A stretch of 64,000 bases of DNA from Escherichia coli (lineage in GTDB: Bacteria; Pseudomonadota; Gammaproteobacteria; Enterobacterales; Enterobacteriaceae), in the NCBI RefSeq assembly GCF_003991155.1, contig NZ_CP031293.1; one strand, 5' to 3'. The notes beneath the pieces were generated by a model, which made no database searches, had not been told where the DNA came from, and saw only the letters and a list, made by a program, of their open reading frames with translations. The translations under genes were made by a program, and so were the position numbers. Each line of letters starts with the position of its first letter. Within the stretch, counting starts at the first letter, position 1. Below, piece by piece: positions 13,437-58,115 of this stretch.

Positions 13437-14468
13437 ATGTCTGCATTTACCCCGGCAAGTGAAGTCTTGCTGCGTCACAGTGATGATTTCGAACAAAGCC
13501 GTATTCTGTTTGCCGGAGACTTACAGGATGACCTGCCCGCGCGTTTAGATACCGCGGCCAGCCGTGCTCATACCCAGCAATTCCACCATTGGCAGGTGTT
13601 AAGCCGCCAGATGGGGGATAACGCCCGTTTTAGTCTGGTCGCCACGGCGGATGATGTCGCAGATTGCGATACGCTGATTTACTACTGGCCGAAGAACAAA
13701 CCGGAAGCCCAGTTCCAGTTGATGAATTTACTTTCTCTGCTGCCGGTGGGCACGGATATTTTTGTCGTTGGCGAGAACCGCAGCGGCGTGCGCAGCGCCG
13801 AGCAGATGCTGGCAGATTATGCGCCGTTGAATAAAGTGGACAGCGCTCGTCGCTGTGGCCTCTATTTTGGTCGTCTGGAAAAACAGCCAGTATTTGATGC
13901 CGATAAATTCTGGGGCGAATATAACGTCGATGGCCTGACGGTCAAAACGCTGCCTGGCGTGTTTAGCCGCGACGGTCTGGATGTCGGTAGCCAGTTGCTG
14001 CTCTCGACGTTAACCCCGCACACGAAAGGTAAAGTGCTGGATGTCGGCTGTGGCGCGGGCGTACTTTCGGTTGCCTTTGCGCGCCATTCACCGAAAATTC
14101 GTCTCACTCTGTGCGATGTCTCTGCGCCAGCGGTAGAAGCCAGCCGCGCAACACTTGCGGCCAACGGTGTTGAAGGTGAAGTCTTTGCCAGTAACGTCTT
14201 TTCCGAGGTGAAAGGTCGTTTTGATATGATCATCTCCAACCCGCCGTTCCACGATGGGATGCAAACCAGCCTCGATGCGGCGCAAACGCTGATTCGCGGC
14301 GCGGTGCGTCATCTTAATAGCGGCGGCGAGCTGCGAATTGTAGCGAACGCCTTCCTGCCTTACCCGGACGTGCTGGATGAGACATTTGGCTTCCACGAAG
14401 TGATCGCGCAAACCGGGCGCTTCAAGGTATATCGCGCCATTATGACCCGCCAGGCGAAGAAAGGTTGA
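13437..14468 (+). CDS. rsmC: 16S rRNA (guanine1207-N2)-methyltransferase
   Basis: 343 aa; SAM-binding [11 protein letters not shown] and NPPFH motifs. Confidence 0.9.
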
Positions 14469-14469
14469 G

Positions 14470-14650
<181 letters not shown>

Positions 14651-14699
14651 TCCTGATGGACATTTTTCCAGCAATTACACCTCCGGCGATAATTAACTA

Positions 14700-14727
14700 T
14701 TGACGAAAAGCTGAAAACCACTAGAAT
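14700..14727 (+). promoter_or_regulatory. Sigma70 promoter of the tRNA-Leu operon (TTGACG, 16-bp spacer, TAGAAT) with GC-rich discriminator
   Basis: Near-consensus -35/-10 hexamers about 40 bp upstream of the first tRNA; GCGCCTCC discriminator typical of stringently controlled stable-RNA promoters. Confidence 0.7.
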
Positions 14728-14768
14728 GCGCCTCCGTGGTAGCAATTCTTTTTAAGAATTGATGGTAT

Positions 14769-14855
14769 GCGAAGGTGGCGGAATTGGTAGACGCGCTAGC
14801 TTCAGGTGTTAGTGTCCTTACGGACGTGGGGGTTCAAGTCCCCCCCCTCGCACCA
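14769..14855 (+). tRNA. leuV: tRNA-Leu (anticodon CAG), copy 1
   Basis: 87-nt sequence GCGAAGGTGGCGGAATTGGTAGACGCG...CTCGCACCA with encoded CCA and long variable arm; anticodon CAG at 14803..14805. Confidence 0.95.
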
Positions 14856-14883
14856 AAAACCACGTTGATATTGCTCGCACTGG

Positions 14884-14970
14884 GCGAAGGTGGCGGAATT
14901 GGTAGACGCGCTAGCTTCAGGTGTTAGTGTTCTTACGGACGTGGGGGTTCAAGTCCCCCCCCTCGCACCA
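14884..14970 (+). tRNA. leuP: tRNA-Leu (anticodon CAG), copy 2; one substitution (T at 14931) relative to copies 1 and 3
   Basis: 87-nt tandem copy, identical apart from the single variable-arm difference. Confidence 0.95.
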
Positions 14971-15004
14971 AACGAGGCGATATCAAAAAAAGTAAGATGA
15001 CTGT

Positions 15005-15091
15005 GCGAAGGTGGCGGAATTGGTAGACGCGCTAGCTTCAGGTGTTAGTGTCCTTACGGACGTGGGGGTTCAAGTCCCCCCCCTCGCACCA
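15005..15091 (+). tRNA. leuQ: tRNA-Leu (anticodon CAG), copy 3
   Basis: 87-nt tandem copy identical to copy 1. Confidence 0.95.
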
Positions 15092-15129
15092 ATTATCTTT
15101 ACTTCCTTTCTTGTTGCTTCCCTGTTTTA

Positions 15130-15366
15130 TCATCCCTGCTTCAAATTCATTATCATCAGCATGATGCCAGCAATAAGCGCCAGGCACGATGGTAGCAAAA
15201 CGTAATGCCGCAACTGTTTGTGATACAGCATCACCGGCGTCAATACTAATCCCATCAGAATGACAATCCGCCACTGATCCGGCGATAAATCCGCATACAT
15301 CAGCCCTGCAATCAGCAATCCCGGCAGCAACACTCCCCAGCCACTGCCCAGCGTACGTTGCAACAT
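15130..15366 (-). CDS. yjjZ: Small inner-membrane protein YjjZ (Fur-regulated)
   Basis: 78-aa hydrophobic product from an internal ATG of ORF 15130..15477; divergent from fhuF with a Fur-box-like site immediately upstream. Confidence 0.65.
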   Translation of the reverse strand: MLQRTLGSGWGVLLPGLLIAGLMYADLSPDQWRIVILMGLVLTPVMLYHKQLRHYVLLPSCLALIAGIMLMIMNLKQG

Positions 15367-15384
15367 GGTTTCATCTCTTTCATT

Positions 15385-15403
15385 GATAATGATAACCAAT
15401 ATC
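15385..15403. promoter_or_regulatory. Fur box (GATAATGATAACCAATATC) in the yjjZ promoter region
   Basis: Close match to the Fur consensus GATAATGATAATCATTATC. Confidence 0.65.
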
Positions 15404-15473
15404 ATATGATAATTTTTATCATTTGCAAGCCAGAGAAATCCCTTGCTATCGGGTAAACCTATCGATAGGATTA

Positions 15474-15488
15474 GCAATCATTATCATT
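15474..15488. promoter_or_regulatory. Fur box (GCAATCATTATCATT) just upstream of fhuF
   Basis: Fur-consensus-like hexamer repeats about 20 bp upstream of the fhuF start. Confidence 0.6.
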
Positions 15489-15506
15489 TAGGTTACTATC
15501 CCGATT

Positions 15507-16295
15507 ATGGCCTATCGTTCCGCACCGCTCTATGAAGATGTTATCTGGCGAACGCATCTCCAGCCGCAGGATGCTGGGCTTGCACAAGCCGTACGGGCGA
15601 CGATCGCCGAACATCGTGAACATTTGCTGGAGTTTATCCGCCTGGATGAACCCGCTCCGCTTAACGCCATGACGCTGGCGCAATGGTCATCACCGAATGC
15701 GCTAAGTTCTCTACTCGCGGTCTATTCCGATCATATCTATCGCAACCAACCTTTGATGATCCGCGAGAACAAACCGCTGATCTCACTATGGGCACAATGG
15801 TATATCGGCCTGATGGTGCCACCATTAATGTTGGCGCTGCTGACGCAGGAAAAAGCATTAGATGTGTCGCCGGAACATTTCCACGTTGAGTTTCACGAAA
15901 CCGGACGCGCCGCCTGTTTCTGGGTCGATGTGTGTGAAGATAAAAACGCAACACCACATTCGCCGCAGCAGCGAATGGAAACGTTAATCAGTCAGGCGCT
16001 GGTTCCGGTTGTGCAGGCACTAGAAGCAACGGGAGAGATTAACGGTAAACTTATCTGGAGCAATACCGGTTATTTGATCAACTGGTATCTGACTGAGATG
16101 AAACAGCTGCTCGGCGAGGCGACGGTTGAATCGCTGCGCCATGCCCTCTTTTTTGAGAAAACGCTCACTACCGGTGAAGATAATCCACTCTGGCGTACCG
16201 TGGTGCTGCGCGACGGCCTGCTGGTGCGCCGCACTTGCTGCCAGCGTTATCGCTTGCCGGATGTGCAGCAATGTGGTGACTGTACGCTGAAATAG
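15507..16295 (+). CDS. fhuF: Ferric-siderophore reductase FhuF (2Fe-2S)
   Basis: 262 aa; C-terminal C-C-x10-C-x2-C cluster (RRTCCQRYRLPDVQQCGDCTLK). Confidence 0.9.
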   Translation: MAYRSAPLYEDVIWRTHLQPQDAGLAQAVRATIAEHREHLLEFIRLDEPAPLNAMTLAQWSSPNALSSLLAVYSDHIYRNQPLMIRENKPLISLWAQWYIGLMVPPLMLALLTQEKALDVSPEHFHVEFHETGRAACFWVDVCEDKNATPHSPQQRMETLISQALVPVVQALEATGEINGKLIWSNTGYLINWYLTEMKQLLGEATVESLRHALFFEKTLTTGEDNPLWRTVVLRDGLLVRRTCCQRYRLPDVQQCGDCTLK

Positions 16296-16333
16296 AAAAA
16301 TTTGCCGGGGAAGTAAACCCGGCATTAAGCGTA

Positions 16334-17011
16334 TTAATAGGGGTGCAACACGTTACTTGCTTCGCAATGACGCATACATAACAGAATGTCTGCGGCCTCC
16401 AACAGCCCTGCATCAGAACTGACGCCCAGTTTCGACATCACATTAAATTTATGTGCACGGATCGTTTTGATATTGCGTTTAAGCTGCTCGGCAATTTGTG
16501 TCATTGAGTAGCCACGCGACATAAAGCGCAATATTTCTCTCTCCGTCGGGCTTAACGTCCGGCTTTGGTTAATGTACCACTGATTGTTCAGTCGATCGGT
16601 CGCCTGACGTACACCATTTAATGACAAAAAGAGTTCCTGATGAAAAATCTCCAGCGTTGACGCTTTACTTAATACACCGTCCAGCGGTGATGGCGACAAT
16701 GAACCAATCAGCCGAGCTTCAATATCATCATCCGCAATAACTAAACGCCGGGTACGCGGAAACTTAATCGCCAGTTCAGTCAGGCAGGATAATCCCTCTC
16801 TGCGCGCACTTCTCATGGCAGAAAAAGAAAAAATGACCGCCGCAAACGAGATCCGCGACATGGCATCCTGAAATGACTCCTGACTGGTATAGGTATGGAG
16901 CTTATAAGGGTTACCCGCAAACTTTCTGAATAAACTCTCAATACCGATACTGCTCATGACGCATTTTTCTATGAGTGCGACATTTCTCTTCTTAATTCGG
17001 CTGTGTTCCAT
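16334..17011 (-). CDS. bglJ: LuxR-family transcriptional regulator BglJ
   Basis: 225 aa; C-terminal LuxR-type HTH ([45 protein letters not shown]); overlaps the yjjQ 3' end. Confidence 0.85.
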
Positions 17012-41244: not shown

Positions 41245-41903
41245 TTGCCGAAGCGTTAAAAGCTGATGGGATGGAAGAAATTTATTTTTCTGGCGACAAA
41301 AAAGCGGAATCTATCGATATTTTTGACGAAGATTATCTGGCGCGAATTAACAAGATCAAACTTCCAGCAACGAAGATCCTGTTATTACAAAAATTACTGG
41401 AAAAAGCGATCAGCGAGTTCAGGAAAGTGAACCAGTTGCAAGGGATTAACTTCACCCGCCGCTTCCAGGCGATTATAGATCGTTATAATGAGCGGCGAGA
41501 AGATGATGTACTCAACGGTGAAGAATTCGATACATTCAGTCAGGAAATGATTGATATTATCTATGATATTAAAACCGAAATGGGCACCTGGGCCGATTTA
41601 GGCATTGATATTGAAGAAAAAGCCTTTTTCGACATTCTTGCTCATATGCGCGATAAATATCAGTTCACCTATGACGATGAAAAAATGCTGTCACTGGCAA
41701 AAGAGATGAAAAGCGTTGTTGACAACACATCGAAATATCCTGACTGGAGTAAACGCGATGATATTAAAGCGAAACTGAAAGTTGAACTTATTCTGCTTCT
41801 ACACAAGCATAAGTTCCCGCCAGTAGCGAATGATGATGTTTATATGGGTGTGCTGGCACAGGCAGAGAATTTTAAAGAACATCATATGAGTGCTTTAAAT
41901 TAA
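41241..41903 (+). pseudogene. Type I restriction enzyme HsdR C-terminal fragment (DUF3387-like)
   Basis: 220-aa ORF starting at the ATGA overlap with the upstream fragment; motifs LGIDIEEKAFFDIL and ...LLLHKHKFPP... resemble the HsdR C-terminal domain as I recall it; no helicase/nuclease core present. Confidence 0.5.
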
Positions 41904-57443: not shown

Positions 57444-58115
57444 TTTGCGCACTCCTGACGTTTAGCAACATATGCGGCTTGCCCTGAACACCGGGCACCA
57501 CTGTATTGATGCTCATTTTCCATAGCCATTCCCTTTTGTTCATTACATCCATGTCAGTCTGAGACAGGCCTGAATCCTGTCAGCAAAGTATAAAACCTTA
57601 CTTGCCTATGAATATCTACTGACTTTTCAGGAAAAAAGTCATGATTTGATAAAAATCATCAAACTCAAAAAAAAACTGCTAGTATATTCTGAATATTCCG
57701 AATAGTTATGTAGATGAAAATACTTGTCACCGCCGCTACTTAATTCCGGTGGGAAATTATTTATTTCCGCATAATCAGCCATGTATTATTTGAAACAATT
57801 AGTTTGTAAATAATATAAATTGATAACATATCAAATACATCAAAAATACCATTCACAGGCATTATTAATATAGACATCAATATAGCAACATCAAATTCCA
57901 ATTAGTAATAAGATATGCTTTTTAATTGCATGAAAATAATTTCAAATGAGCGTTTTTTGATACTTTAGAGTGTTTCCTACCCTTTAATATCACCGTGTAG
58001 AGTTGATATCACTACAACAGAAACATGCATGTCATTTGTTTACTTCTCTTTTTACTACAGAAAAATTTATCTATTTTTCTAAACATCAGTGAAATACTCC
58101 TAAAAGGTAACTATT

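Follow-up and report, generated by a model that had tools for sequence, protein, structure and literature searches.

The 140-bp spacer between the divergent Escherichia coli genes yjjZ and fhuF very probably carries two separate Fur operators, one for each gene and each expected to occlude the core promoter of that gene. Fur regulation of yjjZ and fhuF is already known in detail from published experiments, and the present analysis makes small additions to it: Fur sites that had been overlooked, the assignment of one cluster of sites to each gene, and a composite origin of the spacer. The underlying evidence is split between two sources, in that others demonstrated by experiment the binding of Fur (in vitro as well as in living cells), the derepression of both genes in its absence, and the transcription starts, and our analysis contributes sequence statistics, the location of sites with respect to promoters, and the constant association of each cluster with one gene across Enterobacteriaceae.

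Locus and Fur motif content of the spacer

The DNA analyzed here, a stretch of 64 kb taken as a whole (the window), belongs to an E. coli chromosome and contains rsmC, three tRNA-Leu genes, yjjZ, fhuF, and bglJ. Several complete genomes match a 1.7-kb stretch around the spacer with 100% identity, and 5423 of 5426 genomes contain it. The RefSeq annotation of the 100%-identical genomes (three tRNA-Leu genes, yjjZ as DUF1435, fhuF as siderophore-iron reductase, and bglJ) concurs with the Pfam matches (Table 1) in upholding the gene names that an earlier note, made from the sequence alone, had given to yjjZ and fhuF. The fhuF product is a ferric-siderophore reductase with a 2Fe-2S motif at its C-terminus. 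Positions 15367..15506 are exactly the yjjZ/fhuF spacer, bounded by ATGs at 15366 (minus strand) and 15507 (plus strand), with a G+C content of 33% vs. 51% window-wide.

Table 1. Positions of genes, promoters, and regulatory elements in and around the yjjZ/fhuF spacer (window coordinates)
Feature	Coordinates	Strand	Evidence and details
yjjZ CDS	15130..15366	-	78 aa DUF1435 small membrane protein; ORF, RefSeq, Pfam PF07256 (E = 9e-37)
High-affinity Fur cluster ('fhuF1'), yjjZ operator (probable assignment)	15378..15430		footprint, matrix, ChIP-exo, conservation
yjjZ sigma-70 promoter	15393..15428	-	-35 TTGCAA 15428..15423; -10 TATGAT 15406..15401; start 15393
Junction zone between spacer halves	15426..15441		local alignments end or start here; poorly conserved
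fhuF promoter	15443..15477	+	-35 TTGCTA 15443..15448; 17-bp spacer; -10 TAGGAT 15466..15471; starts 15476, 15477
OxyR-like site	15448..15484		ATAG-N7-CTAT-N7-ATAG-N7-CTAT, 12/16 specified positions
Low-affinity Fur cluster ('fhuF2'), fhuF operator (probable assignment)	15460..15513		footprint, matrix, conservation; sites 15467..15485, 15473..15491
fhuF CDS	15507..16295	+	262 aa; ORF, RefSeq, Pfam PF06276 + PF11575 (FhuF + FhuF_C)

An RNA element in the spacer was considered and dropped, as an Rfam scan of 14400..16500 (E up to 1) gave no match within the spacer and returned only the three tRNA-Leu genes and naRNA4. Located between rsmC and the tRNA-Leu genes, the naRNA4 match (REP-derived nucleoid-associated RNA; 14547..14629) exceeds the gathering score with 70.3 bits. 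The tRNA-Leu genes, leuV, leuP, and leuQ in K-12 naming, stand in tandem at 14769..15088 directly downstream of yjjZ, and mechanical ORF calling placed over them three spurious ORFs with near-identical N-termini (MAELVDALASGVSVLTDVGVQVPPLAP).

Fur motifs were scored with a 19-bp symmetric weight matrix, seeded with the consensus and refined on 16 Fur-regulated promoter regions of K-12 (fepA-fes, fepD-entS, fepB-entC, gpmA, ryhB, sodA, fecA, fecI, cirA, fur, tonB, yoeA, sufA, bfd, mntH, and fhuA), with fhuF left out. In leave-one-out scoring the training regions gave 1.9 to 23.0 bits, mostly between 15 and 21. The earlier note had drawn attention to two boxes, GATAATGATAACCAATATC at 15385..15403 (box 1) and GCAATCATTATCATT at 15474..15488 (box 2), both of which are found at these positions, and had described both as matching the Fur consensus. 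For box 1 this description is accurate: it agrees with the 19-mer consensus GATAATGATAATCATTATC at 17 of 19 positions (2 mismatches), is the sole match with at most 3 mismatches in 64 kb (0 in 100 shuffles), and with 22.4 bits is the best weight-matrix match in 64 kb, level with the best training sites. Box 2, by contrast, is a weak match, agreeing with the consensus at 12 of 19 positions in one register (15467..15485, 12.9 bits) and at 11 of 19 in another (15473..15491, 11.0 bits). These scores fall in the lower range of the training regions, and the only perfect half-site is the right one, AATCATTATC (15476..15485).

Two more sites of the strong cluster had been overlooked in the earlier note, at 15402..15420 (13.1 bits) and at 15408..15426 (16.0 bits, includes TGATAATTTTTATCA). 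Together with box 1 and a site of 9.5 bits at 15379..15397, they make up the overlapping sites of this cluster. The weight-matrix scan, which the earlier note had named as a check on its proposal, came out in favor of Fur sites at both places, with 22.4, 16.0, and 13.1 bits for the strong cluster and 12.9 and 11.0 bits for the weak one. Overall, the spacer contains six sites of at least 8 bits within its 140 bp, compared with at most two in any other 140-bp stretch of the window. The best matrix matches outside the spacer are located at 41543..41561 (16.5 bits) and 57502..57520 (14.2 bits).

Fur targets have been described in terms of a classical Fur box and of arrays of GATAAT hexamers; this work reportedly goes back to de Lorenzo in 1987 and Escolar in 1998, and the 7-1-7 model is said to be that of Baichoo and Helmann from 2002. 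The spacer resembles these descriptions through the near-consensus box 1 and through TGATAATTTTTATCA (15407..15421), a 7-1-7 Fur motif with 1 mismatch; its sites overlap in 6-bp steps as in other Fur arrays, with no unusual difference.

Promoters and published evidence for Fur control

Between 15341 and 15540, the K-12 sequence differs from the window by 5 substitutions (15368, 15435, 15465, 15468, and 15492) and 0 indels, so that published coordinates can be mapped exactly. Chen et al. (2007, NAR 35:6762, PMC2189734) scanned the promoter with a 24-site information model, which scored the strong cluster at 22.3, 20.8, and 16.1 bits and the weak one at 14.6 and 9.3 bits, and reported Fur DNase I footprints over a high-affinity 'fhuF1' (4603763-4603815) and a low-affinity 'fhuF2' (4603680-4603733), corresponding to 15378..15430 and 15460..15513 of the window. 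In that study the weak-cluster footprint was faint at 50 nM Fur, and a gel shift was published for an oligo bearing the strong cluster (PMC2189734). The same source gives fhuF transcription starts at 4603717 and 4603716 (Figure 5 legend), which map to 15476 and 15477, as well as translation starts at 4603686 (fhuF) and 4603827 (yjjZ). The window and K-12 share the locus, the two clusters, and their ranking by strength, and the Fur cores are free of substitutions; the differences are a fhuF -10 of TAGGAT in the window strain vs. TATGAT in K-12 and three other spacer substitutions. TAGGAT is also found in most other genera, and TATGAT is closer to the consensus. Chen et al. (2007) treated both clusters as fhuF promoter elements, whereas the comparative data presented below give the strong one to yjjZ.

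Evidence from living cells is provided by Gao et al. (2023, PMC10164565), who detected Fur by ChIP-exo in MG1655 under iron-replete conditions, the peak at 4603779-4603794 being equivalent to 15399..15414 of the window, with W3110 peaks likewise assigned to yjjZ and fhuF. Upon fur deletion in nine strains, yjjZ increased by log2 5.5 to 11.3 and fhuF by log2 2.0 to 8.5, the derepression of yjjZ being the largest in several strains; the nine share a core Fur regulon of 36 genes, in whose list yjjZ comes first and of which fhuF is also a member (PMC10164565). In the MG1655 supplement of that study, the spacer peak P137 is assigned to yjjZ only, and a peak ~10 kb off, P135 (4593337-4593349), is assigned to fhuF (b4367), probably because rows of the table were misaligned; P135 was not used here. 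Iron-dependent Fur repression of both genes, as proposed in the earlier note, is supported by the combination of footprints covering both boxes, the ChIP-exo peak, and derepression in nine strains. Its picture of two Fur sites flanking divergent starts also stands, with footprints on both, and is refined in that each "box" is a cluster of sites, the two being very unequal and very probably serving one gene each.

The two clusters lie on core promoters. The yjjZ hexamers, spaced by 16 bp in a consensus scan and both conserved across genera, are identical to those of the prediction by Shimada (2014), and a ROSE study (PMC10301672) places the yjjZ start at 4,605,777 in NC_000913.3, i.e., at 15393 of the window. 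According to the latter study, wild-type cells show no activity of this promoter, a fur deletion turns it on, and RNA polymerase alone uses it strongly in vitro (PMC10301672). All of the yjjZ promoter, from the -35 through the -10 to the start site, lies under the strong cluster; the weak cluster spans the -10, the start sites, and the leader of fhuF, whose promoter hexamers were read off the sequence and whose starts are the published positions mapped onto the window.

At the center of the strong cluster lies a perfect 10-bp palindrome, ATCATATGAT (15401..15410), in which a TATGAT -10 can be read on each strand. Its minus-strand TATGAT is the yjjZ -10, and the plus-strand copy pairs with TTGATA at 15383..15388. 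The resulting TTGATA-16-TATGAT arrangement (15383..15410) could be a second, strongly Fur-controlled fhuF promoter. As the main fhuF promoter, both this arrangement and the TTGATA-19-GATAAT predicted by Shimada were rejected in view of the mapped starts at 15476/7 and of a -35 TT that is not conserved.

A candidate OxyR site (Table 1), judged by sequence alone, overlaps the weak Fur cluster as well as the -10 and start site of fhuF; it is the sole match in the window with at least 12 of the 16 specified positions. An OxyR footprint and a fhuF primer extension were reportedly obtained by Zheng et al. in 2001. Oxidized OxyR is reported to bind and repress fhuF, and RegulonDB holds four OxyR sites there.

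Of 5426 E. coli genomes, 3738 carry the strong 53-bp region at 100% identity and a further 1646 at 95% identity or better. Polymorphism in the fhuF-side segment occurs at 15465, 15468, and 15492, positions that flank the Fur core; the 74-bp allele of the window recurs unchanged in 42 genomes and that of K-12 in 366. A megablast search with this 74-bp segment found 511 genomes when the window allele was the query vs. 5019 when the K-12 allele was, the low count of 511 reflecting a limit of the method, because scattered polymorphisms leave no exact 28-base word.

Comparison across Enterobacteriaceae

A scan for relatives of FhuF yielded 80 loci from Enterobacteriaceae, one per species, with the yjjZ start visible in 75 of them. 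A directly divergent arrangement of yjjZ and fhuF (140 to 166 bp apart) is confined to 10 loci, all from Escherichia, Leclercia, and Silvania. In the other 65 loci (from genera including Salmonella, Citrobacter, Klebsiella, Raoultella, Enterobacter, Lelliottia, Kosakonia, Kluyvera, and Siccibacter), the yjjZ start lies ~1.4 kb upstream of fhuF, with a spacing of 1395 to 1444 bp. Reading of ORFs in two of these loci, from Salmonella enterica subsp. arizonae (L036, 316..1380) and Klebsiella michiganensis (L094, 346..1392), revealed between the two genes a membrane GGDEF (GGEEF) protein of ~350 aa encoded in the fhuF orientation (Pfam GGDEF E = 4e-47 for the Salmonella protein); the uniform spacing suggests the same intervening gene in the other 63. 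The GGDEF gene, missing in Escherichia, Leclercia, and Silvania, is divergent from yjjZ, and some 190 to 230 bp separate it from the strong Fur cluster upstream. Fur-matrix matches of 23.8 and 19.5 bits (CATAATGATTATTATTTTC) are located ~894 bp upstream of fhuF in Citrobacter youngae (L029) and C. werkmanii (L031), respectively; these matches fall inside the GGDEF CDS and are limited to these two species.

On both sides of the intervening gene, Fur sites are kept close to their respective start codons. In 73 of 75 loci, the top-scoring site in the 120 bp next to the yjjZ ATG reaches at least 18 bits, and in 54 of 75 it reads exactly GATAATGATAACCAATATC; the strong box begins at a distance of 16 to 25 bp from this ATG, also in the 65 species with ~1.4 kb to fhuF. 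On the fhuF side, all 80 loci have a site of at least 10 bits no more than 80 bp from the ATG, and 77 of the 80 species have the weak core AATCATT[AC]TCATT there, with a Salmonella counterpart of 18.2 bits at the same place. Alignment of the yjjZ side from 22 genera shows 15385..15428 to be nearly invariant between variable flanks, and alignment of the fhuF side from 23 genera shows the -35 TTGC, the -10 TAnnAT, and 15476..15494 to be invariant or nearly so. The Salmonella yjjZ is reported to be iron-repressed despite the intervening gene, and earlier work cited there puts it in the Fur regulon. The fact that each box stays with its own gene despite a separation of ~1.4 kb argues for two separate operators, and the conservation of the weak cluster alone at fhuF in 65 of 75 species points to a self-sufficient element.

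The two halves of the E. coli spacer have different counterparts in other genera. Up to ~15425 to 15438, it aligns with the end of the yjjZ-GGDEF spacer that lies next to yjjZ, and from ~15428 to 15442 onward it aligns with the GGDEF-fhuF spacer. Local alignments with the Citrobacter, Salmonella, Klebsiella, Enterobacter, and Pseudocitrobacter loci all break at the junction zone (Table 1), where most other genera have about 1.3 kb with the GGDEF gene. The view of the E. coli spacer as an evolutionary composite left after GGDEF gene loss is well supported by these alignments. The simplest reading is that of independent losses of the GGDEF gene, since this gene occurs in most genera and since Leclercia and Silvania differ from Escherichia in junction and spacer length; the direction of change is itself deduced from this distribution. 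On the comparative data, the two operators are adjacent in Escherichia only because the GGDEF gene is absent.

An alternative that we regard as unlikely, even though only ~30 bp (15430 to 15460) separate the facing edges of the clusters, is a single shared operator, in which Fur bound at the strong cluster would spread or loop to the weak one, the center of which is about 77 bp away, and would co-repress both promoters as at fepA-fes, making fhuF repression dependent on the strong cluster. Such a spread would be in keeping with Fur footprints reported to extend at higher concentration (PMC2189734), and the name of a FURTA positive-control clone, FB-FhuF1 + 2, may mean that both boxes were cloned together. 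Nevertheless, the footprints are two discrete ones with an unprotected gap between them (PMC2189734), no part of the spacer is less conserved than this gap, and in 65 of 75 species the weak cluster is found alone at fhuF, ~1.4 kb from the strong one. Coupling appears unnecessary because fhuF in most genera retains the weak cluster only.

Two separate operators also set the spacer apart from its closest parallels. The fepA-fes, fepB-entC, and fepD-entS spacers of the enterobactin cluster are similar in being short, divergent, and iron-regulated, with overlapping Fur arrays on core promoters. At fepA-fes, one Fur-protected region serves both overlapping promoters, whereas yjjZ/fhuF has two discrete clusters of unequal affinity with separate evolutionary histories. 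A further difference from the enterobactin spacers is that one of the two flanking genes is without known iron function.

Weak cluster, proposed mechanism, and meaning

The weakness of box 2 raises the question of a chance match in AT-rich DNA, with iron control of fhuF exerted from the strong cluster only or indirectly. Indeed, four other positions of the window also attain its 12.9 bits (12/19), as do 2.5% of shuffled spacers of matched composition, and by sequence alone box 2 is not significant, standing marginally above chance. It is supported, however, by position, conservation, and the published footprint: box 2 lies within the DNase I-protected region, though a weak one at 50 nM Fur (PMC2189734); its core is invariant in 23 genera, more than the -10 alone would require; and this core recurs in 77 of 80 species, with the Salmonella version of 18.2 bits in the same place. 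We therefore consider a chance match highly improbable. It is scarcely credible that the AT-rich repeats serve primarily OxyR, H-NS, or a Zur-like Fur-family protein, with Fur binding incidental, given that the Fur-dependent derepression is very large and conserved in nine strains and the ChIP-exo peak is present with iron (PMC10164565), that the yjjZ promoter works only once fur is deleted and not in wild-type cells (PMC10301672), and that OxyR, despite the overlap of its putative site with the weak cluster and its reported repression of fhuF, is additional to Fur and not a substitute for it. Shimada's table marks no H-NS binding in the yjjZ/fhuF spacer.

Two separate operators, each over the core promoter of its own gene, suggest the following mechanism. 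Under iron sufficiency, Fe2+-Fur dimers would fill the overlapping sites at 15378..15430, and this array over the yjjZ -35, -10, and start 15393 would turn yjjZ almost fully off. The weaker array at 15460..15513, placed over the fhuF -10 and start 15476/7, would impose a looser repression on fhuF, and oxidized OxyR would be able to bind the overlapping site and also repress fhuF. A looser repression would fit fhuF as a classic reporter readily titrated from Fur. The overlap of sites and promoters points to steric exclusion of RNA polymerase at both promoters, and positional and comparative evidence suggests that each cluster acts mainly on the nearest gene in E. coli. In the literature, we found no experiment that tells apart what each cluster contributes to either promoter in E. 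coli.

Overall, the spacer is a textbook iron-repression switch, the confirmation of which adds nothing new on Fur as such. The fhuF promoter underlies a widely used Fur titration assay (FURTA), the reporter of which is fhuF::lacZ. If the assignment of clusters proposed here is right, the high-affinity 'fhuF1' is really the operator of yjjZ, the gene that heads the published core-regulon table, and fhuF itself has a weak operator only, from which its sensitivity in titration assays would follow. More tentatively, and with rather low confidence, it may be proposed from sequence comparison that fhuF has been rewired in Escherichia by proximity to the strong cluster and that in other genera this cluster exerts iron control over a diguanylate cyclase. 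The rewiring, if true, might operate, e.g., via cooperative Fur binding or via a second upstream promoter at 15383..15410. A diguanylate cyclase gene situated beside a strong Fur cluster, as in Salmonella, Klebsiella, Citrobacter, and Enterobacter, would represent a possible link between iron and c-di-GMP signaling.
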